Origin: a virus | Taxonomy: Duplodnaviria > Caudoviricetes | Reading direction: 5' to 3' (one strand) | Length of the DNA: 64,000 nucleotides | IMG/VR virus record: IMGVR_UViG_3300037067_016568 | Coordinates: 1-64,000 of that record | In this document: piece after piece, positions 9,501 through 56,075 of the stretch | How positions within the stretch are numbered: the first letter of the stretch is position 1 | How the letters are laid out: the number at the start of each line of letters is the position of its first letter | Made by a program: the position numbers and the translations under genes | The notes under the pieces: generated by a model | Seen by the model: the letters and a program-made list of their open reading frames with translations, nothing else | What the model was told of the DNA's origin: nothing | The model's database searches: none

Positions 9501-10145
9501 TGCCTGCCATCCGAAAAACCTATAGACTCCCGTACCATAGGGAAGCTCAGCATGTGAGCTTTCGGTAACGACATTCGGTGTTGGCACATCGAAGTCGGTC
9601 ATAGCGATAGTGCAAGTGTCCGTTCCTGGATTAGACTTGCCATCAGCAGGCGTAAACTTCCACGGTGCGAATTCTAATTCAAAAGAAGTAGCAGTTCTTA
9701 AGAAGCCGAAAACGTCATATATCCTGTCATCTGTCAGAGTAACACCGTTCATATCAGTAGCGGTGTTTAATGCAGATGGAGGTGTATCTACATAGATAAG
9801 ATCCCATAACTCAGAATATTGATTATAAAGGCGTATCTGATTTGATTGAACAAAATGCCAACTTAGTGTAGTGGAATTAAGGACCTTTAAATTGCCGTCG
9901 ACAACGTTGCCACCAGGACCAGTAGCCCCTGTAGCACCAGTTGCCCCTGTGTATCCCGTCGCGCCTGTAGCTCCCGTATAGCCGGTAGCACCCGTAGCAC
10001 CAGAAAGACCAGTGATACCAGATGCACCTGTCAGGCCAGTTGCACCAGCTACACCAGTTGCTCCCGTTAAACCAGTTGCACCAGGAGCACCTGAGGCACC
10101 ACCACTTGCACCGCCCCATATAGGAAGAACGCTGGTTGTAAACAT
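3591..10145 (-). CDS. collagen-like fibre protein with discoidin/F5-8 type C-like domain
   Basis: ~1500 aa of G-X-Y (GAT/GAS/GPQ) triplets; N-terminal [14 protein letters not shown]...Y.YYKI motif; [13 protein letters not shown] tail-fibre-like motif. Confidence 0.85.
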
Positions 10146-19961: not shown

Positions 19962-20642
19962 TTGGTATCTGAACTCAATAAGCGCCTAGCCCAGTATAAT
20001 CGAACCCATTGGTTGACTGTTGAACAGGAACTTGATACAGCAAGATCTGAATTGTCTCGACGCAAGGAAGCAATGACAAGAGAGCAAGTCATCGCTTCTC
20101 TCACAGAGGAAGAAATCGGGCAGTTTCGCCAACGCATCATTGATGATATGACGGCTGACGATTTATGCTCACAATTTCCTGAACACGTCATCCTAGATTG
20201 CCTTTCACAAGAAGCAATAATCGCTCATGCATTTGTCAGAACAATTTCATCAATGAATCGGCATTCAACATTGATGGAAGAAAACCTGACTATGTTGGCT
20301 CGGTTGTTAGCTGAGCTACCACAAGAGAAAATGCGGCGTCAGGTGCAAGAGGCAAAATCTGCACCGGCCCGATTACCACAGGTTGCATTCGTCGGCTTCA
20401 AAACCGAACAAATAGCTATTGTAGCCGACGCTCTGAAAGGACGCATCAGAATCGACGTTGTTGACAAGAATCGCAACAGATTCGATTCACAGGCCGAAAT
20501 CATCATCATATGGACGAAGTTCATATCTCATTCTTTTGAGAAGTCAGTCGTCCAGAATATGAAGCCAGGAGCGCGATTAATACGATTCTCTGGTGGCCTA
20601 GAAAACGCAGCCAAAGAAATCAGCCGAGCACTCAAATCTTAA
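19962..20642 (+). CDS. hypothetical protein
   Basis: 226-aa ORF; C-terminal alpha/beta segment [10 protein letters not shown]. Confidence 0.55.
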
Positions 20643-23600
20643 TCTTCTGCTGTTAGGATGCCGTCAGTAAATGTTAATTGCCTGGTTGGTGAGCCGCCAC
20701 TAGTATCTGAAACGTAGTATACTTTTGTTCCAGCTAATCCAGATGGTACAGGACCTGTAGCCCCAGTTGCACCAGGGGCACCACTTATTCCTGTGGCTCC
20801 GCTAGATCCGTCTATTCCAGTTGCTCCAGTTGCTCCTGTCTCACCCTGTGGGCCGGATGCACCACCAGGATCACCCTGTAAGCCGGTGGCACCGCTCGCT
20901 CCATCTATACCTGTAGCGCCTGTGGCACCGGTTAATCCTGTTTCACCTTGAGGACCTGTTGAGCCAGTGGCACCAGTTTCTCCTTGTGGACCAGAAGCAC
21001 CGCCGGGGTCGCCCTGCAGACCTGTAGCACCTGAAGCGCCATCTACGCCAGTCGCACCGACTTCTCCCTGTGGACCTGTTGAGCCAGTTGCTCCTGTCTC
21101 ACCTTGAGGACCGGAGGCTCCTCCAGGATCGCCCTGTGGACCTGTAGCACCTGAAGCACCTATATCACCAGTGAGACCTGTTTCTCCCTGAGGGCCGGTA
21201 GCTCCTGAAGCTCCGCTAGCTCCATCAATACCAGTTGCACCTATTTCCCCCTGTGGTCCAGAAGCTCCTCCAGGGTCGCCTTGAGGACCAGTCGCTCCGG
21301 AAGCTCCGCTAGCTCCATCAATACCTGTAGCACCTGAAGCTCCGCTAGCTCCATCAACACCTGTAGCACCTGAAGCTCCGCTAGCCCCATATGGGCCCAT
21401 CAAGCCTGTGGCACCTGTTAAACCGATTTCACCCTGTGGACCAGTAGAGCCGGTCGCTCCGATTTCACCTTGAGGACCAGAAGCACCGCCAGGATCGCCC
21501 TGCAGACCTGTAGCACCTGAAGCGCCATCTACGCCAGTAGAGCCGGTCGCTCCGATTTCGCCTTGAGCTCCACTAGCACCATCTATACCGCTCGCTCCCT
21601 GAGCTCCGTCGACACCACTTGCACCGGCATCGCCCGTTAAACCGATTTCACCCTGCGGACCAGTTGCACCAGTTGCTCCCGGCTCTCCTTGCGGGCCAGA
21701 AGCTCCTCCAGGATCACCCTGTGGGCCTGTAGCACCTGAAGCACCCGCATCACCCTGCGGACCAGTAGAACCGGTTGCTCCTGTTGCTCCTGTCTCACCT
21801 TGAGGGCCAGAAGCTCCTCCAGGATCACCCTGTGGGCCGGTTGCTCCTGTTGCTCCTGTCTCACCTTGAGGACCAGAAGCTCCACCTGGATCGCCTTGAA
21901 GACCGGTGGCACCATCTGCACCAGTAGCACCAGAAGCACCTATTTCACCCTGAGAGCCTGTCGCTCCTATTTCTCCTTGTGCTCCTGAGGCACCTGCTTC
22001 TCCAGCTACACCACTAGCTCCCTGAACACCAGTGGCTCCTGAAGCTCCGCTGGCACCATCTATACCAGTTGCGCCTGCTTCTCCTTGAGGGCCAGAAGCA
22101 CCACCAGTAGGGCCTTGTGGACCCGTAGATCCGGTCGCGCCAGTTTCGCCAGTATCACCAGTGTGTCCGGTGGCACCGGAAGCACCTGGGAAACCAGTAT
22201 AACCTTGATTTCCCTGGGGACCGGTAGCACCTGATGCACCGCTAGCACCATCGACACCGGTAGCTCCTGTTAATCCAATGTCGCCCTGAACACCGGTAGC
22301 TCCTGAAGCTCCAGAAGCACCAGTTAGTCCAGCACCAGTTGCCCCAGTAAGACCGGTAAGTCCTGTTGCACCCGATGCACCAGAATATCCTGTATAACCT
22401 TGTGGACCCGTGGCACCAGTATCACCTATACCAGATGCTCCTTGAACGCCTGTAGCACCTGAGGCTCCACTTGCTCCATCAATACCGGTAGCACCAGTAA
22501 GACCTATTTCGCCTTGTGGACCGGTAGCACCTGAGGCTCCACTGGCTCCATCTATACCAGTTGCACCTGTATCGCCTACGCCACTAGCACCCTGGACACC
22601 TGTTGCTCCTGAAGCTCCGCTGGCACCATCTATACCAGTTGCGCCAGTAGGACCAACAAGGCCAGTTGAGCCAGTTGCACCAATCGGGCCTGTTGAACCA
22701 GTTGCACCTGTTGCACCAGTAGGTCCACCATATGGACCTTGAGGACCAGTAGCCCCAACAGGGCCTGTTGAGCCAGTCGCACCAGTTGCACCAGTACCCT
22801 GCGGACCTGTAGATCCGGTGGCTCCTGCATCTCCAGCAACTCCAGTTGATCCAGTTGCTCCAGTACCGGAGGCACCAGCAACACCGGAGGCACCAGCAAC
22901 ACCGGAGGCACCAGCAATTCCAGCAACACCGGTTGAACCAGTAGCACCAGTTGGACCGCCAGAAGGACCAGTAGCACCGATCGGGCCAGTGATGCTGACA
23001 CCAGTTGCACCTGTTGCTCCGGCAAATCCGGTTGCGCCAGTAGAACCCTTAATACCAGATGCTCCTACTGGGCCGGAAGCCCCACCAGTTCGACCTTGTA
23101 TACCTGTGGCACCTGTTAAACCAGTTGCCCCAGCTACGCCGGTCGCTCCGTCACGACCAATACCAGTCGCACCAGTAGCACCAACAAGACCTGTTGAACC
23201 GCCTACGCCAGTTGAACCTGTCGAACCAGCAGGGCCAGAGGCACCACCAGTGGGGCCGGTCGCTCCGGGTTGACCAGCAGGACCAGAAGCACCGTCGGGA
23301 CCGACACCAGAAGCACCAATAGGACCTTCAGGACCAGTCGAACCAGTTGCCCCAGTTGGACCGCCGCCAGGGCCAGTAGCACCAGCGGCCCCTTCAGCGC
23401 CAGTAGAACCAGTTGCCCCAAGACCACTAGCACCCTGCGGGCCGGTCGAGCCAGTTGCTCCTATCGGACCTCCAGCAGGACCAGTCGCTCCGGTGAGTCC
23501 AATACCTGTAGCACCTGTCGCGCCAGTCGGGCCACCAGAAGGGCCAGTAGCGCCAGGAATGCCAGTAGCACCTGTCGCTCCGATGCCAGTAGCACCTGTT

Positions 23601-26600
23601 GCACCAGGCAAGCTGATACCAGTTGAACCAGTCGCACCCACTGGGCCAGACGCACCGCCGGTAGGGCCAGTTGCTCCTATCGGACCGGTCGAGCCAGTTG
23701 CTCCAGCCCCCGTTGCGCCAATAGGACCAATCGGGCCTAATGATCCTTGCGGCCCCGTCGAACCAGTTGCTCCAGTTGGGCCTCCGCTTGGGCCAGTTGC
23801 TCCAGCTGCACCTGTCGCTCCAGAAGCACCAACAATACCAGTCGAAGACCAAGACAAATTCCGATAACCGTCTGTGACCAATGCCTGACCGGCTGAGCCG
23901 TCTATATTTGGGAATCGCATGTTGCTAATGACAACATTCTTCCCGGTACCCCATGCTGAAAGTTGTAAGTCTTCTCCAGACACTGAATGAATGACCGATA
24001 CTTGCAAACCACCTATATCATCATATTGCAGCCCAGCACTGTCAATTAAGCGGCCATGAGTACCAGCAAAGGGTATTCTGTTTGGTGTAAGTCGCGTTCC
24101 GTCATTCAGGACGAAACCTTTGCGAGCACTATCAGTTGTAATTGTAAAGTATAAATCATCTTGTATGAATTCAACTGTGCCTGCTTCTGGTACTGCTAGA
24201 ACGTCACCAGATTCTATTTTCATTGGTGCATTGCCTGGCGCAGCTTTACCAGCTTGAATGTGTAACCTTGCAGTTGGATTGTGTATGCCAATACCTATTT
24301 GCTGACCGGTGACAACAACTGTTTCATCCGCTCTCATTCGCTCTAGTGGATGATAAAAGTTGGTCAAGCGAGTTGCGTTATACTCTGGAACACCAGCATT
24401 GCTGTCAAGAGTGACAGTCCCCAACCAACGATATCCCTTATAATTGCCACTGGCAGCAAAGACTGGAACGCCATCTAGAGTAGCAAGGCCGTCTGAATCA
24501 ACTTGCACCCAATATCCAGCTGCCAAATCATCGGCGAACACGCCAGATGCGTGGCTAACAACGCAAGCATAAGTGTATGAATAAAGAACTCTTTGGCCGA
24601 TTGAATATGATGTCGCAGTGGCCCAATCTTCAATACGACTTTCAGAGACAGGAGTGTATTCAATATACTTTAATTCACCAATAGTAGCAAACCATAGTTG
24701 ATCTGCACCATCTATCTCTTGCATCGGGTAGGTGCATGCAGTCACATCAATGCGATAGAATCGATATTCTATCGCATTGTCGAAAGTGAAGTAATCAGAC
24801 CAAATATCGACACCAGTTGGCGGGTCGACGTCGGTTCTCGTATCCAAGATCGACCAGTTGACATTATCGTTCGAGCCAGAAAATGTCCATGTTCTCGGCA
24901 GTGATGGATAGTAAAGCTTAGCCTTAAACGCATACTTGTTAATGGCCTTCTTCACATATGGGCCAAAGTCGTATGTGATCCACATAGGCGTTTGGAAAGG
25001 ATCGCCCGGCGTATAACCGGTGCCACCAATTTGAACACCCCACCCAGGATTTCCGGGTGTATCTTCTTGATTAAAAGCATACCAGCCATATAAATATGTG
25101 CCGCCAACCTGAACACCGGTTGAGCTGGTAATGACCATGTTTGGTGCGGGATCGACAAATGATGTCATTACCGCTGTACATGTAGTCGTTCCAGTGTTAT
25201 AGATGCCATCAGACGGTACAAACTTCCACGGTGCAAAATGGATGTCAAAAGATGTAGTGCTTATAAATGATGCGAAGACGTCATACGTTCTGTTAGCAAT
25301 TAATGGATTTGCACCCATATCATTGACGATATTCGAAACTGATGGTGCAGTAATGACATTAACCACGTCCCAGGTGCTGTTGGCGTCATCATATAGCCTA
25401 ATCAGGCTTGACTCTACAAAATTCCAGCTTAAAATAGTAGTACTAGTTACTTTGAGATTACCACCAACTATATCGCTGTCGCTGGCATCTCCACCATTAT
25501 CAACCCATGATAAATTGCCATAACCGTCTGTTTGCAGAACTTGGGTTGGCAGGCCGTTGTCTCTTGGAAGATCGAGGACGCCTAATATAATATTACCAAT
25601 CGTGCCTGCTACGATTGAAATATCGCCTGTATCTTTCTTCCTTTCAACGATGTTGTAGAAGTTGCCTATCAATGAGTTATTGAAGTTAGGTGTGCCTGCT
25701 ACATCATACAATGACAGTATGCCAAGCCATCTGTATCCTTTAAAGTCTCCAGAATTGGCATAAACAGGAACGCCATCGAAGACTCCTAACCCACACGCTT
25801 CGACCAAAAACCACAAACCACTTGCTAAATCGGTAGCAAAATCGCCTGAAGTATGAGCAGAAAGACATGCATAGACGCTATCATGAATAACTCTATCGCC
25901 AACATTATAGGCTGTACCGGTTTCCCAATAACTGGCTCTCGAATTAGCTGGAACGCCACGTACGAGCTTAATCTCGTTTAGCTCAACATACATCGCACCA
26001 TAGCCAGCATCAGCAGGGCAATCAGTGATGAGCTTATAATAGCGATAAGCTGAGCCGTTGGAGAACGTATAATAAGCGCTCCATGTTTGATCGCCTGGAC
26101 CGCTTATACCAGTTCTCGAATCTAGTAGAACGTAATCGACACCGTTCTTTGAACCGTAGAGGCTGAATTGGGTCGGAAACGCCCCATTATCATTTGCTCG
26201 TAAAGCATACTTATTGACAATGGTTGGGACATTGAAGTCGTATTGTATCCAAGCCGAGGCAGCTAATGGGATAGGTGTAGATGACCAATAACGAGCAACA
26301 TTGTCACTAAACGCATTCCAAACCTCATATAATTCGCTGCTTGCACTGCTAATCTGTGGTGCTGGCGTAACATCAGAGGTCATTGTCGTGGTGCATGTTG
26401 TAGTTCCCGGATTATCAGCACCATCAATAGACATGACTTTCCAGGGGGCAAAGTCAATATCAAATGCAGTTAGCGTGCCGTTGTAGACAGCAAACACGTC
26501 GTAAACCAAATCAGATTCTAATGCATTGCCGCCAAGATCGTTGGAGAGATTAGAGGCGACAGGTTCAGTTGTTATGTCGAGCAACTCCCAAGCAAGCACA

Positions 26601-27682
26601 TCAGTATTATAAAGACGAATGTGATTTGAGGAGTAAAAGTTCCAGTTTAAAACATCGCCAGTGTCGGCTTCTAATCGGCCACCGACAGTATCGCTACTCT
26701 CACCACCCGGCACAATCATGCTGTTGACATAACGAACTGTCGCTACGTCGTCTGCTACTGATGGAGTTGGTGTATGGTTGTTGAGGAATTCGTTATCTGT
26801 TCCGAGATCAACCGCTGGAATTCGGAACGTATTGTGATTAACGATATTGCTGTTTGAACCAGAATCTAAAGTGAATGACGACCCGACAGCACGCTCTACT
26901 AATGCGTTATTTTCGATAGTATTAGAGCTTGAGCTCACGAGCTTCACAGCGTCTAAATTGTCATCTATCTTGTTGTAATGTAGAATGTTGCTATCTGAAT
27001 TCTGAACGTAAAAGCCGATGGTGTTTGACTTCGATGTGCTCTCAGTGATTGAATTGTTGTTAGAATAAACGATAGAAAAGCCAGTGTTAACGTTGGAATC
27101 ACTGATATTCTCTTCACCGTGGTTTCCGGTGGAGTTGAAGACACCAATGCCATCGGCATTGTTTATGGTTGTATTGTTCGAAACCGTATTATCGTTCGAG
27201 GAATTCTTAAGTACAATGCCATATTCGCGGTTGCCGTCGCAAGTGTTATTCGTTATGACGTTATTACCGCTTCCAGTTAGCTCAATGCCATTCTTATTTC
27301 CTGTGCATACACACAAATCAATAGTAAAGACATCTTCTGGAGATGAATTGTCAAGAAGAATACCGGCTTGATTATCTGTAGACGCTGTTACCGTGAAGAG
27401 TTTAAACATACCGGACACAGCAGTAATCCGGACAGTCGGCGCAGACGTCCCGTCTCCTCGGATAATTGTTGTACGTGGGTCGTCAGTATAGATATTGAGG
27501 ATTTTATTAATTGTCAGATTTTCGGCATACGTCCCCGGTCTGACATAAATGACATCTTTTTCAGCGGCGGCGTCAATAGCCGCCTGAATAGTAGTATATT
27601 CATCATAGTCAGTAGAACCGACGCTGATGGTGTAATCAGCAGTTGCTTTAGTGACTATTCTGTCGGTATTTCTTAACGTCAT
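20639..27682 (-). CDS. collagen-like fibre protein with N-terminal parallel beta-helix (pectin-lyase/NosD-like) and two discoidin-like domains
   Basis: [11 protein letters not shown]...PGTY.EN beta-helix start; N-rich repeats; two GS.NG..W/Y..LD motifs; ~1000 aa G-X-Y. Confidence 0.85.
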
Positions 27683-30438: not shown

Positions 30439-31110
30439 CTAAGCCGTGGGAGAGTTAAATCTTGCCACGAATGCTGCATAATCATCAGCAGTGTCGATGC
30501 CATATGTAGGCTCATCGGCGATTCCTACCAAAATCTTATGGCCTGTGTAAAGTGCTCGCAGTTGTTCGAGACTCTCCATTATTTCTATTTGACATTGAGG
30601 ATACCGAACAAGCTCTAATAAAAAATCTCGCCGATAAGCATAAATGCCAACGTGCCGATAAAAAGAAGATTTTAAAAGTTCTGGACCGTCCAGCAAGGTG
30701 GGGTAAGGAATAGGATTTCTGCTGAAATATAAAGCTCGATTGTTGTGATCTAAAACAACTTTCACGCAGGCCGGATTGGTAAGTTGTGATAGACTGCAAA
30801 TTGGAGAAGCGATAGTGCTCATCACGTCCGATGGATTCTCTATGAGTAGCTTAACTGCCAAATCGATTAATGAGCCTTTTATTTCAGGTTCATCAGCTTG
30901 CACATTGATGATGATATCAACATCAGCGTGATCTCCGATTTGGCTTGTGGCCATCGCCACTCTTTCCGTCCCGTTCTCTGCCGGGCCGGTCATTACAACA
31001 TTACCACCGAATGATTCTACTTCTTTGCGAATCTCGTCGACAGTAGTAGCAACATATATGCCTTCTGAATAGACGGACTGCATAGCAGATTCATAAGTAT
31101 GTTGTATCGA
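30439..31110 (-). pseudogene. kdsB: CMP-KDO synthetase, 5'-truncated
   Basis: NGTERV, INVQADEP, VKVV....ALYFSR.PIP, HVGIYAY, E.LEQLRAL, GIDT..D; homology extends to IQHTYESA then an in-frame stop, so the N-terminal PAR..S.R...K nucleotide-binding motif is absent. Confidence 0.8.
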
Positions 31111-31125
31111 TGATCAGATAGCGAC

Positions 31126-31428
31126 TCACCACTTTTCTCCACTCAACTTCTGAACTTCCTTATCCTGTTTGACTATAGCATTCCTCAGCTGCCTTGCTAC
31201 AAATGCTTGGTCCTCAGCATCATCCATAGCAGCTATCAGCCAACCAGACTTATACTCTTTACTTCTCTCGATCTCCGGTCGAAGTCGGTTGGAGTTGAAG
31301 AAAGCTACGTAACCAGACTTCCACTCACTAGACTCTGTTGCATACTTAGCAGGAATGCAATCAAAGTGGTTTGAGCATCCGGCTAAAATCACAACAACCA
31401 TCAAACAAACGCCTCGCTTTGTTAACAT
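31126..31428 (-). CDS. putative lipoprotein
   Basis: basic N-terminus, hydrophobic stretch, LAGC lipobox. Confidence 0.6.
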   Translation of the reverse strand: MLTKRGVCLMVVVILAGCSNHFDCIPAKYATESSEWKSGYVAFFNSNRLRPEIERSKEYKSGWLIAAMDDAEDQAFVARQLRNAIVKQDKEVQKLSGEKW

Positions 31429-31640
31429 CTTACACCTCCACCTTTATTACCCAACAATACCATTATATTATATACCAGGTTGGAACACAAGATGAGTTTA
31501 TTGGTAGTTTCGACAGTTACACTAATCCGGCGTCAGCCAAGATGCATAACACGGATTTGCCAGTATTGCGCAAGAGAAGCTTACCCGGCAATCGAGACGA
31601 ACTTAAACGAGCAGGAATAATAATTCTCCCTGCCTGTAAT

Positions 31641-32255
31641 CCTGTAGCTGCTTGGAAACGAACGCTATTCTCCATTTCGCGGCGATCAGCTTGCCCGACG
31701 TCCCGCCCTGTAGTTACCTGGGAACGAACGCTATTCTCCATTTTGATATTTCAAATAATTCCAGCGATTCTACCTGTAGTTACCTGGGAACGAACGCTAT
31801 TCTCCATTAGTCGAGCAACTCTTGGACGAGCCGTTGGTCCTGTAGTTACCTGGGAACGAACGCTATTCTCCGTTTTATTCCAAGGCTGCTGATTGTCAAT
31901 GGTCCTGTAGTTACCTGGGAACGAACGCTATTCTCCATTTCGGTCTTCTACGGCATGCCTGTAGTTACCTGGGAACGAACGCTATTCTCCATTCCAATAG
32001 GCGGCGCGACCGGCGATGCCAACCCTGTAGTTACCTGGGAACGAACGCTATTCTCCATTCTATTCCGACCACTCCAGATGCAAGTTCTCCTGTAGTTACC
32101 TGGGAACGAACGCTATTCTCCATTGATGCCGACCATTCGCTTTCGCAAGAGAACCTGTAGTTACCTGGGAACGAACGCTATTCTCCATTGCCGCTCATCA
32201 GGGATGATGTTTTTGGGTACCTGTAGTTACCTGGGAACGAACGCTATTCTCCATT
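31641..32255 (-). CRISPR. CRISPR array 1: 10 repeats (36 bp), 9 spacers (18-30 bp)
   Basis: plus-strand repeat CCTGTAGTTACCTGGGAACGAACGCTATTCTCCATT at 31641 (degenerate), 31707, 31773, 31839, 31904, 31958, 32024, 32089, 32154, 32220. Confidence 0.95.
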
Positions 32256-32261
32256 ACGCTA

Positions 32262-32807
32262 TTAGGTGGTTCCCGGCACCTTATCTTTCTGCACAGCCTC
32301 GGTAGCGATGGCGTATTGCAGCTTAACATAACTCGAAGCTAATATCAGAAGCGTGTTGAGGTTAACGGTGATTTTCTCCTTGGGGCACTCTAAGTGCACC
32401 AGTATCTCATCATTAACCTTTCGGCCTTTTATCTCAACCGCCCCAATTTCATTATTCAAAACCTTGCCGTTGATCCAAGCGGTGACACCATGACCGCTTG
32501 GATCAGCCCAATCGTCCGACAGGCCAGCAGCCGCCATGAAAGCCAAAAGGCTTTTGCCCTCTGGCGATCGTGCCAAACTAGAAGACATTCCAGAGGTCTT
32601 TGGAAGCCTTATTGTTATATCTCGCTCCACAGGCGTTTCGTCGTCTTCGAATTTGACAACCCACACTTCTGACGGCGGATTCGATGTATGACAAAGACGA
32701 ACTAACGACACAAGTTGTGCCTTGCCTTCGAGTTCTAGATGTTCACTGGGAGTCTGTTGCTTCTTGTAGACGGAGCACCAATCTCCACGCCTCAAAACTG
32801 ATTTCAC
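32262..32807 (-). CDS. hypothetical protein inside CRISPR locus
   Basis: 181-aa ORF ending within the array 1 leader. Confidence 0.55.
   Translation of the reverse strand: MKSVLRRGDWCSVYKKQQTPSEHLELEGKAQLVSLVRLCHTSNPPSEVWVVKFEDDETPVERDITIRLPKTSGMSSSLARSPEGKSLLAFMAAAGLSDDWADPSGHGVTAWINGKVLNNEIGAVEIKGRKVNDEILVHLECPKEKITVNLNTLLILASSYVKLQYAIATEAVQKDKVPGTT
32264..32281 (-). promoter_or_regulatory. conserved leader hairpin of array 1
   Basis: AGGTG-CCGGGAAC-CACCT on minus strand; identical to the one beside array 2. Confidence 0.65.
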
Positions 32808-32894
32808 TTTACTAGTCCCCCCTGTAGTCCTGTCCCTGAATCTCGCAATTAAATCTCTGCGCTGTGATACCTTTTTATAGCTCGACGGATGTGG

Positions 32895-33440
32895 TTAATT
32901 AGCTTCGAGTTCGGCAATCCGTGTTTGAAGTTCGGCAATCCGTGTTTGAAGTTCGGCAATTCGTGCTCGAAGCGCCTCATTCTCCGCTTCCAGGGTCTTA
33001 ATACGCGCCAAAAGCTGGTCCTGGACCGCCTGCATTGACGCCTTGATTTTGCGAGCTTCCTTATATGGATCAGCTGGCTTGGCCCGGCGACGACTACGTG
33101 GGGCGTCGGATTTCGTTTTGGCGAGCATGCCGTTATACATGTCGCGAAGCTTACCATTCTTCCATTGATATTCTTCCGGATAGTGCTTGAGCATCATCCG
33201 TAATTCGGAGAAGGTCAAGCAAAGGTCGATGACATACTCATCCAAGATGGCCAAGAGTTTGTTGTTGTCCAAGATCTCATTGTCGGCCCGAAAATCTGGA
33301 TCTTCATAGACGCTGTTCAGCAGAGTTGTCCGCCGATAGGCGTTGTGGCCGCTTGACTGCTGTAGCTTCCGGACTTGCTGTAAGAGCTTCTTGTACTGCT
33401 TTTCGCAGCGTGGCTGGGTTGGTGTGGTCGACCTCATCAA
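32895..33440 (-). CDS. hypothetical protein with C-terminal coiled coil
   Basis: GGAGA RBS; heptad IAELQTR repeats encoded by a 21-bp tandem repeat at 32909-32960. Confidence 0.6.
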   Translation of the reverse strand: MMRSTTPTQPRCEKQYKKLLQQVRKLQQSSGHNAYRRTTLLNSVYEDPDFRADNEILDNNKLLAILDEYVIDLCLTFSELRMMLKHYPEEYQWKNGKLRDMYNGMLAKTKSDAPRSRRRAKPADPYKEARKIKASMQAVQDQLLARIKTLEAENEALRARIAELQTRIAELQTRIAELEAN

Positions 33441-33568
33441 TAGTTCTCCTTAGTCTTTTATGAAAAGCTGATAGTTGCGCACATTGACGACAACAAAATT
33501 TCTTGTTGCCGTTCAATGGCGTCTTACATATTGGACATTCCCCCTGTCCTGTAGTCCTGGCCTGTAGT

Positions 33569-33806
33569 CCTGTAGTTACCTGGGAACGAACGCTATTCTC
33601 CATTTTCGGCATCGGTGATCTCCCTGTAGTCCTGTAGTTACCTGGGAACGAACGCTATTCTCCATTTGCGGTTCTGTTCAGCGAGGAGGCTGTGGCCCTG
33701 TAGTCCTGTAGTTACCTGGGAACGAACGCTATTCTCTATTGCGACGTGCCATTACCGAATGCGATCTATGCCTGTAGTTACCTGGGAACAAACGTAATCC
33801 CACATT
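33569..33806 (-). CRISPR. CRISPR array 2: 4 repeats, 3 spacers
   Basis: repeats at 33569, 33631, 33705, 33771 (last one divergent in its distal half); extra CCTGTAGT octamers before three of the repeats. Confidence 0.9.
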
Positions 33807-33811
33807 TCGCT

Positions 33812-33835
33812 TTTAGGTGGTTCCCGGCACCTAAA
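33812..33835 (-). promoter_or_regulatory. conserved leader hairpin of array 2
   Basis: plus strand TTTAGGTG-GTTCCCGG-CACCTAAA. Confidence 0.65.
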
Positions 33836-33844
33836 TATGTCCCC

Positions 33845-34147
33845 TTAGTCCGGCAGCCTGAAAATATTAACCCATCTTCCATAGATTTTTGTTTTGCGCT
33901 TCACCAATTCGCCCGGCGTTCTGGCTAACGCCGCCATCACGCGATCTGATGTTTTCGTACATTCGTGCGGCCATCCTAGACGTTCAGCTATTAGATGTAA
34001 CAGCCCCTCATCACCAAACATGACAGCTGGGTTGTCTGTTTCTCTCAACACTTCAACGGCAGCATCGCATACTCGCATTATAGCTATGTATTCTGTAGTC
34101 GTATCCCAAATGGCGGTGTCAATTGATGAAAAAGAATATAAATGCAA
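33845..34147 (-). CDS. hypothetical protein inside CRISPR locus
   Basis: small ORF; helix-helix-helix-hairpin pattern might be winged helix (weak). Confidence 0.4.
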   Translation of the reverse strand: MHLYSFSSIDTAIWDTTTEYIAIMRVCDAAVEVLRETDNPAVMFGDEGLLHLIAERLGWPHECTKTSDRVMAALARTPGELVKRKTKIYGRWVNIFRLPD

Positions 34148-34171
34148 AATATTTCTGCTGCAAATGTCAAG

Positions 34172-34384
34172 CTAAATAATACAAGTGATAGAAACGTCGA
34201 ATGCGATTGATATAGTCAAGCAGATCCAAAAAGCCAGCATGCTACAAGCAATTGGCGTAAGGGGACATAACGTTTCAGCTAGTGCAAATGGCTTTATCTG
34301 GAATAGCACATACCAAATATTGCCGATAATCGGAGCAACAAATGGCGGAATAAGCAACCAGATTAATTTGTCTATCTTGCTCAT
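34172..34384 (-). CDS. small membrane protein
   Basis: two hydrophobic segments. Confidence 0.45.
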   Translation of the reverse strand: MSKIDKLIWLLIPPFVAPIIGNIWYVLFQIKPFALAETLCPLTPIACSMLAFWICLTISIAFDVSITCII

Positions 34385-34457
34385 CTATATCACTATTATA
34401 CATCACTAAGAAGAAGCTGTCAAGCTCCCATCTGGCTACCCCGCATTCCGCCATGGA

Positions 34458-35600
34458 TTATCTGTTGATTGTTACGTCGATATCGATCTTATTACATGCC
34501 CGTTGGATCAACGATTGCATTTGTCGCCAATCCCATCGAGTCGTTTCAGTGTTGCCAATGCGTCCTGCATATTCTAAATAGTAATCCGCAGGAGGAGCAA
34601 AGATAACAAGATGACCGATGCCATTTGTTGCCAGTAATCTTGTCACATCATTGGCAAGGTGGGTGCTCCAGGTTTTGATGAAATCACGCCACCGCCGCTC
34701 ATATTTCGCCTTGTCTGCAGCCGAAATATATTTCCTGGTCTTCTTACTCTCTTGAATATCCAAGGTATTTCGCGTGTGTTCAACATCCTCGCCGCGACGA
34801 AGGCGGAATATGGTTTTACCATTGAATCGGAAGGAGAATGGGCGACGTTGCGCCGCTAACAGAAATGCCGTCTTATTCTTGTCAAGCGGTACTTTCACCT
34901 TGGGAATAGAATGGCAAGGATAAGCAATTAATCTACCGTCGCGTTCCTTCAAGTCGAGTCCCTTTAAATCCCATTCACCCGCTGCAATTTTCCACAGCAT
35001 ATCGCGGACAGAATGTAGCCTATAGCTTTTGGTCTTAATGATGAATGTCATCAAACCATAGCCGTCGACGTTGACCTCAAGCTTCCAATCTTCATTCTTG
35101 CTCTGCGGAACGATGATTCGGCAGTCACGTTTATGAAACGGAATGCTACTTCGTTGAGACGACTGTAGGAGACCTCCTCGGCCCAAAAGGACTGTTATCC
35201 AGCGAGGATAAGCCGACTTATACCCATGTTTCTGCAGTATTCTCAACGCTTTCTCGGTTGCTAGCTTACAGTGCTTGTTCATCGAGGGATATGTAGCAGA
35301 CATGATTTCGTCAAGCTGCTGAGCCATTTCGGTACTGCATGGATCGACAGGGCACCGCGTACGGGGGCCAACGCGAGTCTCAGGCTCGTAAAGCCAGCGG
35401 CGATCTTGTTCTGCCCATTCACGAACGAGAAGATGATTGCCAGCTTCAAAATGAATTCGCAACCATGCTGACATAAAATCGTTGACGATTCTCTGAATAT
35501 CAGAAGCAAGAGTGCCGATGTACTTTTTGTGTGACTTATAGTCATCGTCACCGCCAAGTAAACTGATTCGCTTGTTCTTAACAACTCGAAAGTCGGCCAT
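34458..35600 (-). CDS. Cas12f/TnpB-like protein B, nuclease-dead and C-terminally truncated
   Basis: paralog of 35735..37096 (NDF.S.W...H.EAG, CPV.P.S..MA, RW...L.G.G, VP.S.N..WKL, LWKI..GE, WDW..MQ); RuvC-I site reads TAFLLAA, RuvC-II reads HLVIFAP. Confidence 0.75.
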   Translation of the reverse strand: MADFRVVKNKRISLLGGDDDYKSHKKYIGTLASDIQRIVNDFMSAWLRIHFEAGNHLLVREWAEQDRRWLYEPETRVGPRTRCPVDPCSTEMAQQLDEIMSATYPSMNKHCKLATEKALRILQKHGYKSAYPRWITVLLGRGGLLQSSQRSSIPFHKRDCRIIVPQSKNEDWKLEVNVDGYGLMTFIIKTKSYRLHSVRDMLWKIAAGEWDLKGLDLKERDGRLIAYPCHSIPKVKVPLDKNKTAFLLAAQRRPFSFRFNGKTIFRLRRGEDVEHTRNTLDIQESKKTRKYISAADKAKYERRWRDFIKTWSTHLANDVTRLLATNGIGHLVIFAPPADYYLEYAGRIGNTETTRWDWRQMQSLIQRACNKIDIDVTINR

Positions 35601-35613
35601 ATCGTCCTCTGTA

Positions 35614-35698
35614 GGTTAAAAAAGGTAACTCTGGCGAGAGCTAACACGGTACGGAATGCCCGCAGCTATTCTCGCCTTCGAGACGTACAGGACGCCTC
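35614..35698 (-). ncRNA. putative tracrRNA, copy 1
   Basis: two hairpins, split anti-repeat (CCUGU loop + AGUUACCU), U6 tail; TGCTATAAG extended -10 about 20 nt upstream (35717-35725). Confidence 0.75.
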
Positions 35699-35734
35699 AA
35701 TTAGTGATTCTGCAAACTTATAGCACAAAAACAA

Positions 35735-37096
35735 TTATCGATTAACTTCTTTTTTACGGGGCTTACCTCCTTGCCTAGCGATTACTTTCATCCCGGCTGC
35801 TGCTCCAACCGCTTCCAACTGCTGCTGCATGTGGTACCAATCCCAGGCCGTCGATTCATTACGGCCAATTTTTCCGACATTAGAGAGATAACGAGTATCT
35901 CGCCATTTACCGGTTGGCTGATATGTTACCAGTTGACCAACGCCCGCTTTAACACAGCGACCTATAACCTCTGCGGCCCAAGTGTTGTTGAAGGTTTTGG
36001 TCTGATTACGCCAATTGCGTTCCGACTTTCGCCGCCAGTTATGGACTTTACGACCATGGTTTTTACGCGCACTAGATGCATATTTGTACGATTCGCTTTT
36101 ACCGAACCGTTGAAGCGTCAAAGAACGACGAGCATGTTTAATGTGCCTGCAGCTTCGCAGTTTCATATGTGTCTTACCATCAATGCGAAGCATCACGCCA
36201 TGATATCGACCACCTGATACGACAGCCGTTTTCTTGCTATCAGAGGGGGCAACCACACCGGGCATCAAATAGCAGATATCCGCATACCACTTGCCGGTGT
36301 TTTCACACTTAATGATCTGCGAAGTGCCGAAAATGTATTCGCCAGACGTAATTTTCCACAACACCTTGCGAATAGGTGCTAAATGACGCCCGCCAGTCCG
36401 AAGTTTGAAAACCATGGGGCGTAGAGTTCTTTGGCCATCTACTTTTTCGTAACGAACAATCAACTTCCAAGGGTCATTATTACTTTTAGGGACGACGAAG
36501 TTGCTGTTAGCGGTGTAGAATGGAACCGGTTGTGGTCTGGAAAATTGTGAATATTCTCCATATCCACATAGGATCATAAACCAGCGCTTATATTTAGACT
36601 TCGTGGCCGGTGTGGAGAGGAGCGTACTACTAAGCCGCCTAGAAACAATACCAATCGGTTTAGTCCCTAAATTGCAGTGTTGAGTAGTCAGGCGTTTATA
36701 GATCTCATTCGCCATCTTGTTAGAATATGGCTGAACGGGGCATTTTGCACGTGGAGGGATTTTCACGTCGAAAGAGGGGAGTAACTCCTTCTTTCCTTTT
36801 CGCTTCTGAGCTTTCTGAGCCTTGTCCAATTCGCCGTATTTCTGTGCCCATTCCTTATCTTCTTGTATCCATTTACGAAGAGCAGTGGGAGAGCCAGCTT
36901 CAAGATGCAAGCTAAACCACTGACTATGAAAATCATTTGCGATTTGCTGCATTTGAAGCGATATCTTGGCGAGACGTTCTTTTTCCTCTGCAAAGCCGTC
37001 GTCAATACCACATAGCTGGACGCGAATAATCTTCGTAAGTCCTTCTGGCTTCTTTTTACGTGGTTTCTTTTCTGCCGGTTTCTTCAATTTACTCAC
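35735..37096 (-). CDS. Cas12f-like protein A, nuclease-dead and C-terminally truncated
   Basis: KITSGEY.FGTSQII.....KWY..I.Y, KYASSARKNHGRK, WDWYHMQQQL...AAGMKVI align by eye with AsCas12f1-type RILSGEY..SASQII.....KWYLNISY, KYAGGARGGHGRD, WTYYDLQQKI...EEAGIKVI; GIDLG is replaced by VVSGG, MEDL by TYQP; no Zn finger or RuvC-III. Confidence 0.8.
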   Translation of the reverse strand: MSKLKKPAEKKPRKKKPEGLTKIIRVQLCGIDDGFAEEKERLAKISLQMQQIANDFHSQWFSLHLEAGSPTALRKWIQEDKEWAQKYGELDKAQKAQKRKGKKELLPSFDVKIPPRAKCPVQPYSNKMANEIYKRLTTQHCNLGTKPIGIVSRRLSSTLLSTPATKSKYKRWFMILCGYGEYSQFSRPQPVPFYTANSNFVVPKSNNDPWKLIVRYEKVDGQRTLRPMVFKLRTGGRHLAPIRKVLWKITSGEYIFGTSQIIKCENTGKWYADICYLMPGVVAPSDSKKTAVVSGGRYHGVMLRIDGKTHMKLRSCRHIKHARRSLTLQRFGKSESYKYASSARKNHGRKVHNWRRKSERNWRNQTKTFNNTWAAEVIGRCVKAGVGQLVTYQPTGKWRDTRYLSNVGKIGRNESTAWDWYHMQQQLEAVGAAAGMKVIARQGGKPRKKEVNR

Positions 37097-37143
37097 TATA
37101 GTCTCCTACACAAAATAAGCGGCTTTATTCAGGGGCCTGTAGT

Positions 37144-37552
37144 CCTGTAGTCACCTGGGAACGAACGCTATTCAACATTCACATCGGGCTTGTAGTCAAG
37201 CCTGTAGTTACCTGGGAACGAACGCTATTCAACATTATTGAGACAACTTAATCAATGATGTCCTGTAGTCACCTGGGAACGAACGCTATTCAACATTTAA
37301 AACTGTCCCGTCCCGTTTTGATATAGCCTGTAGTCACCTGGGAACGAACGCTATTCAACATTTCAGAAGCTGTGAAAGCTTCATCTTGGCACGCCTGTAG
37401 TTACCTGGGAACGAACGCTATTCAACATTCCTCGGCGATTTCGTCGGCTGTAATTGGCACCTGTAGTCACCTGGGAACGAACGCTATTCAACATTTCCCT
37501 TCGTCGTGATAATCAGCCTGTAGTCACCTGGGAACGAACGCTATTCAACATT
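37144..37552 (-). CRISPR. CRISPR array 3: 7 repeats (variant CCTGTAGT(C/T)ACCTGGGAACGAACGCTATTCAACATT), 6 spacers (21-31 bp)
   Basis: repeats at 37144, 37201, 37262, 37327, 37394, 37460, 37517. Confidence 0.95.
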
Positions 37553-37564
37553 ACGCTAACGGGT

Positions 37565-37648
37565 GGTTAAAAAAGTAACTCTGGCGAGAGCTAACACGGT
37601 ACGGAATGCCCGCAGCTATTCTCGCCTTCGAGACGTACAGGACGCCTC
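37565..37648 (-). ncRNA. putative tracrRNA, copy 2
   Basis: identical to 35614..35698 apart from a 1-nt deletion near the U-tract; ends 12 nt upstream of the first repeat of array 3. Confidence 0.75.
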
Positions 37649-37735
37649 TATTTGGTGATCATAGTTTATCTGGACTGTTTTAGCATCACATTAATAGGTA
37701 GTTAACTTCGATTAATCTCTTGTGAAGCCTGTAGT

Positions 37736-37914
37736 CCTGTAGTTACCTGGGAACGAACGCTATTCTCCATTTCGTCTCCATTTACATTTTGAACGAACGC
37801 TATTCTCCATTGACGCTAAGGGCCACGTTATCGGAGCACCTGTAGTTACCTGGGAACGAACGCTATTCTCCATTCGGCTGTTATGAAAAGATATTGCAGA
37901 TCCTCCTGTAGTTA
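37736..37914 (-). CRISPR. CRISPR array 4: 2 full and 2 partial repeats, 3 spacers
   Basis: full repeats at 37736 and 37839; partial 37791-37811; handle-only CCTGTAGTTA at 37905-37914. Confidence 0.85.
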
Positions 37915-37995
37915 TTCACGAAGAAGTGTCATCTCGGATTTCTTTGATTTTTATTCATATGTGCTCTGATATAATCCTTTAGCACGCTGGTAGTT

Positions 37996-38054
37996 TTTTA
38001 TAGCACGACGCTGGTATTAATTAATTAAATAGCCATATTTGTCGTGCTATAAAA
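37996..38054. promoter_or_regulatory. 14-bp inverted repeat, probably divergent extended -10 promoters
   Basis: TTTTATAGCACGAC (37996-38009) / GTCGTGCTATAAAA (38041-38054) around an AT-rich core, between the CRISPR locus and a plus-strand operon. Confidence 0.6.
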
Positions 38055-38070
38055 GGGTAGAGGTTTAAAA

Positions 38071-38781
38071 ATGAAGCTAAGCAAACGGTACATCTACCCA
38101 CCACGTCCAAAAGACGCAATCCCTTTTAGTCAGATTGGGATGTATAATCAATACGGGTGGAAAGCCCAAACGAAATTCAACGATAAACGCACCGAAATCG
38201 CAATCGATGCAAACACTGTCGAGATATTTAACCGCCACAAAGGACAACACAAGACATTCGTGTTGTCCGATTCTCTGCGAGATGAGATCATCGTTGTTTG
38301 TCGTGACATTTTCGGATTGGATGTATCACAATGGTCATACCTCGATGGGGGGTTGCTTGATGGAAAGAGCAAGCACATCGAAGGGATGGTCGTCATCTGG
38401 GACATCCTAGTCCGTGAGGGCGATTGGCTCGTCGGCAGCACTTATCAAGAGCGATATGAATGGCTACTAACCAAAGCGGAGGCCGCTGGCGGCGAACCGT
38501 TCATCGTCATCATAAATGGTCAAGAGTTTGACTTCGGCATCAGACTCAGCGAACACATTTTTATGCCGCGATTCTGGGAAGACTTCGAATCTTGCTGGCA
38601 ATTTACGCAAGAAGTCAACAAAGCTGCCGGATGGAGCATGGAGAATGGTGGTGAGCCCGTATTAGAAGGGATTGTTATGAAAGATCCTCAGGGAGTCTTA
38701 AAACCTGATAACGGGAAAGAAAAGAATAATACTGAATGGTCTGCTAGAAGCCGAGTTAGAACTGGCCGTCATCATTTCTGA
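38071..38781 (+). CDS. ATP-dependent ligase-like nucleotidyltransferase domain protein
   Basis: QTKFND (motif I K), YLDGGL, IWDIL, EGIVMK motifs. Confidence 0.65.
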   Translation: MKLSKRYIYPPRPKDAIPFSQIGMYNQYGWKAQTKFNDKRTEIAIDANTVEIFNRHKGQHKTFVLSDSLRDEIIVVCRDIFGLDVSQWSYLDGGLLDGKSKHIEGMVVIWDILVREGDWLVGSTYQERYEWLLTKAEAAGGEPFIVIINGQEFDFGIRLSEHIFMPRFWEDFESCWQFTQEVNKAAGWSMENGGEPVLEGIVMKDPQGVLKPDNGKEKNNTEWSARSRVRTGRHHF

Positions 38782-54449: not shown

Positions 54450-56075
54450 TCAAGTTCGTCTGATGATGTAACACAATTTTTCACCGCCATATTTCTTATA
54501 ATATCCCTTCGCCTCTGCAAATTCCCGCTCAGTCATGCTCAAGCTCTTGGCTTTACCATATAAAGTCCGTTTGTGCATAACATAGCCTTGTTTATCGACA
54601 TACCAATAGTCTGCAGGAACGATGTGATGTAACTGAAAGTTGGCGGCTTTGTAAATCGTACCTTGATGCCCAACTGTTGTATCTGCGTAAGCTATAACTA
54701 GTTTACAATCAATTTGTTTAAGGGCTCTTTTAATAAACCAACTGGCGAGATTCTTTTTATGATAGGACGGATGAATACACAATCTAGATAGTTCGCGAAT
54801 TTCTCCATCACACAAACCAAACTGTGATGCTGTGTTCTGTCGTAGGGGTGGACTAAAGACAACGCAAGCTATTAATTGATTATCGAGATAAACACCAAAC
54901 GCTTTACCACCTCGATTTTTCCCAAGGTAATGATAAAGATCTAAAAATTCTCTCACCTCAGCGAAGCTTATTTCTTTGATGTATAATTTACTAAATTCAA
55001 ATTGTTTGGTTTCGATATTCAACCCTAGTTTCAACTTCAATCTATCTAATACTCGATCCTTACAATAGAATTCATGTTCCCAGATATACATTATTTCATA
55101 TTCTGGGAAGTATCGATTAATATATGTGAATTTAGACTGGTCATTTCGTTCAGCTTTGGAGAGCGAATGCCAATAATCTCCTTGACATTCAATCAACAAT
55201 TTCTTATTACCATTGATATGTGGAACAACACAATCAAAAACGTAATATCCAATTCTCGTTTCTTCTCCTTCCTTGAAATATTCTATATGCAGATCATCCA
55301 GGAATGCATATAACATTTTTTGAATAGATGAGATCTGGCACTTTTGAGAAGCACGAGCTGCAGCTATTTTCTCACGATATTTCGAATTTAGCCAATTAGC
55401 TTTGGATGCTATCGCCAATTTTTCATTGTAATGTAATGTGGTATAAGTTTTGTTTTTATATTCTGGTGATGTTTGAATTATAGCTATTTGTTCTTCATTA
55501 ATCTTTGGTGCCTTGATTTTGGCTATTTTCTTCGTACCTCTCAATTTATTTGATTTTTTTGCTGGTGTTTGTTGTCTTACTGATATTTGTTGCTTGCGCC
55601 GTTCAGAGATCAATCTTGATTGGATAGCCCTGAACTCCTTGTTATTCCATTTTGCGACAGATGCAGCCAAAGCCTTAGTGATATGCTTTTTACTGGCTTC
55701 TGCTTGAAATATAGCAGATCTATCTTTATCAAAAATTATACCATTCTCTCTACCCGCTTTAGAAACCAAATGAAAAGATATTCCAAGATCTGATGCAATT
55801 TGAACTCTTGAAATCTTATTAGCATTCGCTTTAATATATGCCACTTGTTCTGGCGTAGCTGGCTTCGACTTATAATTTCTTATAGTGTCTCGATGTTCTT
55901 TGGTTGGAGAATATTTGATCGGCGCAATCCCTAATTTTCTAGCACGCACACCAATAGCTCTAGCGCAGATGCTTGGTAAGCATTTCTCACTAAATTCCTT
56001 TATAGTAAGAAATGGCAGATAGGTAATTATTAAATGGTCATATTTTGACCAGTCTACAGGTTTTCCAGATGGCAT
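54450..56075 (-). CDS. fusion: basic DNA-binding repeats + Vsr/DUF559-like endonuclease + Mom-like acetyltransferase
   Basis: IECQGDYWH...D..K...IWEHE; then HYL, ELSRLC, AYADTTVGHQGTIYKAANF. Confidence 0.75.
   Translation of the reverse strand: MPSGKPVDWSKYDHLIITYLPFLTIKEFSEKCLPSICARAIGVRARKLGIAPIKYSPTKEHRDTIRNYKSKPATPEQVAYIKANANKISRVQIASDLGISFHLVSKAGRENGIIFDKDRSAIFQAEASKKHITKALAASVAKWNNKEFRAIQSRLISERRKQQISVRQQTPAKKSNKLRGTKKIAKIKAPKINEEQIAIIQTSPEYKNKTYTTLHYNEKLAIASKANWLNSKYREKIAAARASQKCQISSIQKMLYAFLDDLHIEYFKEGEETRIGYYVFDCVVPHINGNKKLLIECQGDYWHSLSKAERNDQSKFTYINRYFPEYEIMYIWEHEFYCKDRVLDRLKLKLGLNIETKQFEFSKLYIKEISFAEVREFLDLYHYLGKNRGGKAFGVYLDNQLIACVVFSPPLRQNTASQFGLCDGEIRELSRLCIHPSYHKKNLASWFIKRALKQIDCKLVIAYADTTVGHQGTIYKAANFQLHHIVPADYWYVDKQGYVMHKRTLYGKAKSLSMTEREFAEAKGYYKKYGGEKLCYIIRRT

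Follow-up and report, generated by a model that had tools for sequence, protein, structure and literature searches.

A phage-borne CRISPR cassette encoding two Cas12f homologues that lack the RuvC catalytic residues

The subject of this study is a CRISPR cassette in the genome of a tailed phage, carried by a 64,000-nt stretch of DNA that represents the first 64 kb of the 184,768-bp IMG/VR virus record IMGVR_UViG_3300037067_016568 (G000; CheckV completeness 51%), and which is referred to below as the window. Two paralogous genes, A and B, specify small proteins homologous to Cas12f, both of which have lost the catalytic residues of the RuvC nuclease, and they are found together with four arrays of a single 36-nt repeat and two copies of an RNA with the features of a trans-activating CRISPR RNA (tracrRNA). 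The cassette, which is about 6 kb long and self-contained, is probably descended from a type V-F (Cas12f) system whose nuclease was lost long ago, and its guides are, judging from the sequence, most likely used to bind and silence DNA rather than to cut it. Along the minus strand, from 37914 to 31641, the order is array 4, tracrRNA copy 2, array 3, gene A, tracrRNA copy 1 and gene B, followed in the same direction by two small open reading frames (ORFs), array 2, an ORF of 181 codons, a backbone ORF and array 1. The main features are:

31641-37914, minus strand: the CRISPR cassette, with four arrays of one 36-nt repeat, two putative tracrRNA copies of ~90 nt, and the paralogous genes A and B
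37736-37914, minus strand: array 4, with two full repeats and one half repeat (37736-37874), then a truncated remnant extending to 37914
37563-37654, minus strand: putative tracrRNA copy 2, directly upstream of array 3, which leads into gene A
37144-37552, minus strand: array 3, with seven repeats of the 5' variant AATGTTGAAT..., between tracrRNA copy 2 and gene A
35735-37096, minus strand: gene A, 453 aa, GTG start, Cas12f-like, with a lysine-rich N terminus
35613-35704, minus strand: putative tracrRNA copy 1, in the 5' untranslated region of gene B
34458-35600, minus strand: gene B, 380 aa, a Cas12f-like paralogue
33569-33806, minus strand: array 2, with four repeats, the leader-side one degenerate; two carry an 8-nt duplication, ACTACAGG
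31641-32255, minus strand: array 1, with ten repeats of 36 nt and nine spacers of 18-30 nt

Proteins A and B are 30% identical (E 2e-61), and their profiles could be aligned by hhalign over the full length with a probability of 100% (E 8e-98). Protein A matched the AsCas12f chains among PDB sequences (E 4e-9) and the PADLOC models for Cas12u3 (E 2e-13) and Cas12f (E 2e-11). The joint profile of A and B matched SpCas12f1 (E 4e-12), AsCas12f (E 5e-11) and also OsCas12f, and the profile of B alone reached SpCas12f1 (E 3e-4). An AlphaFold model of A, with a predicted local distance difference test score (pLDDT) of 72.6, found AsCas12f as its best fold match in the PDB (E 4e-18), followed by OsCas12f, the nuclease-dead Cas12f (dCas12f) 9n9c, CnCas12f1 and Un1Cas12f1, with TnpB, Cas12k and Cas12m far below the Cas12f structures. 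A fold search of BFVD returned only TnpB-like viral proteins. Neither A nor B matched any family in Pfam or NCBIfam, and the single sequence of B found no match among PDB sequences or PADLOC models. The profiles of both proteins and the fold search of A agree that A and B are Cas12f homologues, as had been claimed in an earlier reading of the same DNA, made from the sequence alone (the original prediction), and the structural comparison with Cas12f and TnpB that it proposed came out in favor of AsCas12f.

The loss of the nuclease site was apparent in HMMER alignments to AsCas12f and SpCas12f1. The aspartate of RuvC-I (GIDLG/VDLG) aligns to S294 of A (VVSGG) and to a leucine of B (FLLAA), and the glutamate of RuvC-II to Q393 of A (TYQP) and to an alanine of B (IFAP). 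Beyond its WDW motif AsCas12f continues with a zinc ribbon and RuvC-III, and both are missing from A and B, which end 33 and 22 residues after the motif, respectively. None of the three acidic positions of the RuvC Asp/Glu/Asp triad is kept in either protein, and the alignments bear out the motifs, and the early ends after the W motif, that the original prediction had read from the translations. The possibility that a separate gene encodes the missing zinc ribbon or RuvC-III was considered and rejected. There is no conserved ORF downstream, and in the related locus L005 an array begins 6 nt after B. The TNB zinc ribbon (PF07282) had no match above the Pfam cut-off in G000 or in the related phage genomes G001 and G002, and a single weak match, below the cut-off, in G001.

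The phage loci compared were G000, G001, G002, L005 and L003, the last of which overlaps G001. G002 is a close relative with a complete genome of 363,885 bp (CheckV 100%), and from its size the record and its relatives are considered to be jumbo phages of ~360 kb. The phage origin proposed for the cassette is supported by the CheckV-rated virus record and by PHROG matches that fit a phage (a nucleotidyltransferase, a Mom-like/HNH protein, and phrog_2448). Re-reading of the locus confirmed the four arrays, the two tracr-like RNAs and the two tandem paralogues. The absence of cas1, cas2 and cas4, previously noted for the window, was found to hold across the whole 185 kb record and the complete 364 kb relative, neither of which has a match to Cas1, Cas2 or Cas4 above the Pfam cut-off. 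There was no Rfam match within positions 31000-38500 of the window, and a promoter and terminator scan gave a result not above chance.

Both genes are under strong purifying selection. Among G001, G002 and L005 the ratio of nonsynonymous to synonymous substitution rates (dN/dS) was 0.076-0.092 for A and 0.081-0.089 for B, and values of ~0.08-0.09 in both genes are direct evidence for such selection, with synonymous sites saturated (dS 0.9 to >1.8). With dN/dS below 0.1 and the reading frames intact in every locus, the view that the locus is functional and not decaying is well supported by comparative sequence data. The reason originally offered for it, a loss shared by two paralogues, has to be corrected. 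An exhaustive profile search recovered 366 representative clusters at E ≤1e-3 (184 at E ≤1e-30), nearly all of 400-490 aa and ending shortly after the WDW motif. Across 163 aligned members of this family there is no Asp at all in the RuvC-I column, and the RuvC-II column has Gln in 122 and Glu in only 6. In a phylogenetic tree the A clade is sister to the B clade and both lie inside the dead family, beside P0017, and because of this nesting the ancestor would already have been dead and the A/B duplication a later event. The loss was thus inherited by A and B, and is not independent evidence of selection.

Five family loci were recovered from outside this phage clade, all of them viral in appearance, in surroundings of many small unknown ORFs along with DnaB, helicases, PD-(D/E)XK proteins, resolvases and integrases. 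These distant loci carry a single gene flanked by short arrays: two mini-arrays in L007, 3-4 repeats in L044, and a 13-repeat array in L043 with a repeat ending in GGGTGACTACAGG. The characteristic family motif was found in none of 185,579 species-representative genomes, an initial protein scan of IMG/VR found no homologue, and a metagenome scan gave two short loci only.

For the ~90-nt RNA, folding predicts two hairpins, then an unpaired tail, then a U-tract. In copy 1, hairpin 1 has the loop CCUGU and is followed by hairpin 2, the tail reads AGUUACCU, and the U-tract leads without a break to the ribosome-binding site and ATG start of B. Within a phage the copies hardly differ, and the core is nearly invariant across loci with proteins that are ~53% identical. 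Compensatory changes were found at seven base pairs, compared to 1.2 in shuffled alignments (0 of 500 shuffles scored as high). A covariance model built from the close loci matched just upstream of the gene in three distant loci outside the training set (E 5e-25, 5e-15 and 3e-11), namely L043, L008 and L007.

The RNA also varies in concert with the repeat. Its tail can pair with the 8 repeat nucleotides that lie just before the final 5, matching repeat AGGUAACU with tracrRNA AGUUACCU in the window, AGGUGACU with AGUCACCU in G001, G002 and L005, and AGGCAAGU with ACUUGCCU in L044, so that repeat and anti-repeat co-vary through three states (UAAC/GUUA, UGAC/GUCA and CAAG/CUUG). The 5 nt that end the repeat, ACAGG, are the complement of the hairpin 1 loop, CCUGU, and in L007 this contact is changed on both sides (CUGC with GCAGG). 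A short duplex combined with a loop contact is the geometry of Cas12f guide RNAs in published structures. The co-variation within the RNA and with the repeat supports the tracr-like RNA of the original prediction, and by this comparative evidence it is a real tracrRNA. In one G001 copy (L034:16695-16786, the same as L003:1947-2036) the tail runs straight into GACTACAGG and a guide-like sequence, and this copy looks like a natural tracr-crRNA (CRISPR RNA) fusion, that is, a single guide.

The arrays share the 36-nt repeat AATGGAGAATAGCGTTCGTTCCCAGGTAACTACAGG (minus-strand sense), and its core is absent from the 185,579 species-representative genomes. When 92 repeats were aligned, anchored on the last 15 nt, the last ~20 nt were at least 90% conserved and the first 16 nt varied; two 5' variants, GGAGAAT and GTTGAAT, both recur in G000 and L005. 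Spacers are mostly 29-30 nt, some are 18-27 nt, and the overall range is about 18-31 nt. Other features of the arrays and of the cassette are:

32256-32281, minus strand: a conserved hairpin that flanks array 1 on its leader side, AGGTGCCGGGAACCACCT...
32895-33440, minus strand: ORF of 181 aa between arrays, a basic stretch followed by a coiled coil/leucine zipper
33561-33568, 33623-33630, 33697-33704, 37136-37143 and 37728-37735: ACTACAGG duplications
Genome 123672-124054, beyond the window: an orphan array, the fifth of the same repeat, ~86 kb from the cassette

The leader-side hairpin of array 1 has further copies upstream of array 2 and the fifth array, the latter of which lies a few kb from a region syntenic with the cassette site of G002. 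The duplicated 8 nt, ACTACAGG, are the last 8 nt of the repeat. In arrays 2, 3 and 4 they occur again behind the terminal repeat, and in array 2 also behind two internal repeats; the spacers that follow are of normal length once these 8 nt are taken off. It may be speculated that the half repeats, the 18-21-nt spacers and this recurrent duplication hint at recombination or slippage.

A total of 69 spacers were extracted from the G000, G001, G002, L005 and L003 loci, and as four from L003 duplicate those of G001, 65 are distinct. No overlap was seen among these 65 spacers of the four related loci, and it appears from this comparison that spacer content has been fully turned over, with repeats and tracrRNA fixed. 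Three G001 spacers of 20-21 nt (L034 14670-14689, 15033-15052 and 15089-15109) are near-copies, differing by one base or an offset, which suggests repeated targeting of one variable site. No spacer matched the three phage genomes, including the complete G002, or L005, and those of G000 did not match its own 185 kb, which places the likely targets outside these phages. Regulation of the phage's own genes was rejected because there were no self-matches in the complete G002 genome. The original prediction had called for a search of metagenomes for targets and a protospacer adjacent motif (PAM), and in this respect it was disappointed, as nothing convincing was found in INPHARED, PLSDB or with the IMG/VR seeds tried. 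The sole match among INPHARED phages, of the array 3 region to Lactococcus phage WRP3, had an E value of 0.6 and looks like chance. The sole match among PLSDB plasmids, 37 nt, GC-rich and on a Streptomyces plasmid, runs into the repeat and was also judged to be chance. None of the three spacer seeds tried in IMG/VR, nor a degenerate spacer, had a target there.

Genes A and B are in tandem in every close locus recovered (G000, G001, G002, L005 and L003), and matching sizes of A-bearing and B-bearing contigs (167790, 68068 and 41105 nt) suggest three more such loci. B has neither the lysine-rich N terminus of A nor a 12-residue segment bearing Y..A.SA.KGHGR, which is near-invariant among the other family members. 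A complex prediction with the two proteins only, and no RNA, gave an interaction prediction score from aligned errors (ipSAE) of 0.68, compared to 0.28 for the best control; of 80 solved complexes 58 attained the mark used for this score, as did 2 of 110 mismatched pairs. Runs agreed in at least 60% of contacts and partner pLDDT was at least 72. The predicted interface is symmetric, between the recognition (REC) regions (47-70 and 164-186 of A, 33-60 and 139-148 of B), and includes residues that are invariant in both paralogues (L176, G178, G180 and Q184). From this model we consider it probable that A and B form a heterodimer.

We put forward the following scheme as somewhat more likely than not; the binding of RNA and of DNA, the silencing, the heterodimer and the nature of the targets are inferred in it. 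The short arrays would be transcribed on the minus strand, and the conserved 3' part of the repeat would become the crRNA handle, pairing with the ~90-nt tracrRNA by an 8-bp duplex (AGGUAACU/AGUUACCU) and a 5-bp loop contact (ACAGG/CCUGU). The dual RNA would be bound by both Cas12f-like proteins, most likely as an A:B heterodimer that replaces the asymmetric homodimer of ordinary Cas12f, with B specialized as the second protomer. The complex would bind complementary DNA outside the phage, belonging to the host or to rival mobile elements, and leave it uncut, and transcription or replication would be blocked.

Several points weigh against this scheme. No protospacer, and hence no target class or PAM, was found in the collections searched. 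The AlphaFold model of B was poor (pLDDT 54) and unfit for fold search. The dimer model may mirror the solved Cas12f homodimers, and cannot tell A:B from A:A or B:B. The duplex energy of the tracrRNA with the whole repeat was no better than with shuffled repeats, and because this energy is uninformative the case for pairing rests on the 8-nt and 5-nt contacts and their co-variation.

The main alternative to a heterodimer is a pair of parallel effectors, in which A and B form separate homodimers that share the tracrRNA but serve different arrays, target classes or stages of infection. The two recurrent 5' repeat variants, the tracrRNA copy upstream of each gene, and the single-copy relatives, which evidently act alone, are all in keeping with this. 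However, the variants lie in the poorly conserved part of a repeat whose last ~20 nt are conserved in all arrays, the tracrRNA copies within a phage are nearly identical, B is without the motif that is near-invariant in stand-alone family members, and the A:B model passes its controls, so that we regard parallel effectors as unlikely. A role as an RNA-guided recruiter, with the dead complex bringing a transcription component, the 181-aa coiled-coil protein or a host nuclease to the target, seems more improbable again. A published dCas12f does recruit sigmaE and RNA polymerase (PMC13472631), and in G000, G001 and G002 the 181-aa ORF keeps its place between arrays and accompanies the cassette when it moves, but the three phage genomes encode no sigma70_r2 domain, family and fold searches with the 181-aa ORF gave nothing informative and it was not found beside single-copy relatives, and control of the phage's own genes is unlikely as no spacer matches its own genome.

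Two other explanations deserve much less credence. That the dead proteins and tracrRNA act as an anti-CRISPR decoy, soaking up crRNAs of a host type V-F system, is very improbable, even though PMC11656645 cites the precedent of a phage-encoded dead Cas9. The phages keep arrays of their own, with complete spacer turnover between relatives, the tracrRNA co-varies with the phage's own repeats, and the repeat core is absent from all species genomes searched. That the cassette is the decaying residue of a Cas12f system that was active in the past, and does nothing today, would explain the lost catalytic residues and C terminus, the irregular arrays, the half repeats and the short spacers, but is scarcely credible for genes with dN/dS below 0.1 at saturated synonymous sites, frames intact in every locus, an almost invariant tracrRNA, and a family that numbers at least 366 clusters and has Gln at RuvC-II in most of its aligned members.

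Returning to the silencing heterodimer, a wider interpretation may be put forward tentatively. This could be the first natural heterodimeric Cas12f-type effector, in which duplication in a jumbo-phage lineage has split the roles of the asymmetric homodimer, A being the target/heteroduplex protomer and B the scaffold-binding protomer. It would belong to a large, essentially virus-only family of dead, dual-RNA-guided DNA binders, with spacers that turn over without Cas1-Cas2 and a repeat found in no sequenced host. If this is true, it would provide a natural experiment in the passage from an obligate homodimer to a heterodimer, and help in understanding and engineering the protomer roles of Cas12f. 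If silencing is confirmed, phages would be widely using a strategy like CRISPR interference (CRISPRi) by means of a ~400-aa effector. Two genes, one tracrRNA and a 36-nt repeat are small, defined parts that could serve as a compact programmable DNA binder. The arrays would have to gain spacers without adaptation genes, and without a host that carries the same repeat.

The cassette moves as a unit, since its site in G002 differs from that in G000 and G001. The backbone genes that flank it in G000 and G001 adjoin each other in G002 at 126.5-128.6 kb (126478-128566), and the cassette, with the 181-aa ORF, is found elsewhere, at 199.3-204.7 kb (199348-204700), where the left flank is syntenic with 106.7-119.2 kb of G000. 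The 181-aa ORF, which travels with the cassette and lies between arrays in G000, G001 and G002, is a candidate accessory gene. Its heptad coiled coil is encoded by a 21-nt tandem repeat (32908-32972), and an Atlas search with it was uninformative.

Other observations were made in the window. Just downstream of gene B, at 34395-34423 (minus strand), there is a perfect consensus sigma-70 promoter (TTGACA, 17 nt, TATAAT), which faces a 70-aa hydrophobic ORF (34172-34384). Adjoining array 1, at 30439-31083 (minus strand), is a cytidylyltransferase gene (PF02348, E 8.5e-32), of which no homologue was found in G001, G002 or L005. Two giant ORFs of 2184 and 2347 aa (3591-10145 and 20639-27682, both minus strand) are rich in 9/18/27-nt periodic repeats and look like collagen-like Gly-X-Y proteins, probably fibers. 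A 541-aa protein (54450-56075, minus strand) has PHROG matches to Mom-like DNA-modification and HNH/homing-endonuclease families.

The relationship of the cassette to known systems is closest for type V-F. AsCas12f, SpCas12f1 and Un1Cas12f1 are among the best sequence and fold matches, are similarly small, and use a dual RNA in which the tracrRNA contacts the 3' end of the repeat by a short duplex and a loop, and a similar REC-REC dimer is suggested here by the complex model. Unlike them, the cassette is phage-encoded, has two paralogous subunits, and lacks both the RuvC Asp/Glu/Asp residues and the TNB zinc ribbon. Cas12m (type V-M) is likewise a compact effector of mobile elements that interferes by binding and blocking transcription, but it belongs to another Cas12 branch, with an E value of ~1e-7 in the fold search of A, well below the Cas12f matches. 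Cas12m acts as a monomer, is not known to use a tracrRNA and keeps a modified RuvC site for crRNA processing, whereas a tracrRNA is present here. As to Cas12k and CRISPR-associated transposons (CAST), no tnsB, tnsC or tniQ was among the Pfam and PHROG matches of neighboring ORFs, a result that does not include a dedicated genome-wide search. TldR resembles A and B in being a dead RuvC protein of the TnpB/Cas12 superfamily and an RNA-guided repressor, carried in some cases by phages. It is a direct TnpB derivative with one fixed omega-like guide beside its gene (PMC10705468), in contrast to the multi-spacer arrays with turnover and the separate tracrRNA of the cassette. From landfill viromes, a viral type-V-like clade C has been described, with a 474-aa representative and no RuvC motifs (PMC12607003). 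By description only, it is similar in being viral, of ~470 aa, near CRISPR arrays, related to type V and without detectable RuvC motifs, but the paper gives no tracrRNA, gene pair or function.

The nearest published parallel is the dCas12f of Bacteroidota. The dCas12f-sigmaE system is a truncated, dead Cas12f activator, a dimeric protein with a single guide that recruits sigmaE and RNA polymerase, and a CRISPR-linked dCas12f cluster, also in Bacteroidota, is predicted to repress efflux promoters (PMC13472631); a 2023 survey had already reported Cas12f branches that lost activity along with RuvC-III (PMC10691335). Like A and B, the dCas12f of PDB 9n9c is derived from Cas12f by a C-terminal truncation that removes part of RuvC, has the Cas12f fold (11th in the fold search of A), and presumably binds without cutting, and its dimeric architecture resembles that predicted for A and B. 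It differs in being chromosomal, in sharing an operon with a C-terminally extended rpoE (sigmaE) gene, and in using a single chimeric guide and no tracrRNA. The phage cassette has no sigmaE gene (Sigma70_r2 had no match in G000, G001 or G002), its tracrRNA and arrays are separate, except for the one fused copy in G001, and its family is viral, with the family motif in 0 of 185,579 species genomes. The profile had no match to 9n9c up to E 10, and because it reaches active Cas12f but not 9n9c, the phage A/B family appears to be a dead lineage separate from the Fta dCas12f (9n9c). The novelty claimed by the original prediction was therefore overstated, as C-terminally truncated dead Cas12f, including a CRISPR-linked cluster, was already known from bacteria. 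No paper was found on a viral, dual-RNA, two-subunit dead Cas12f system, and what is new here is a phage-borne system with a tracrRNA and arrays, no sigma factor and two subunits, which lies out of sequence reach of the solved dCas12f.

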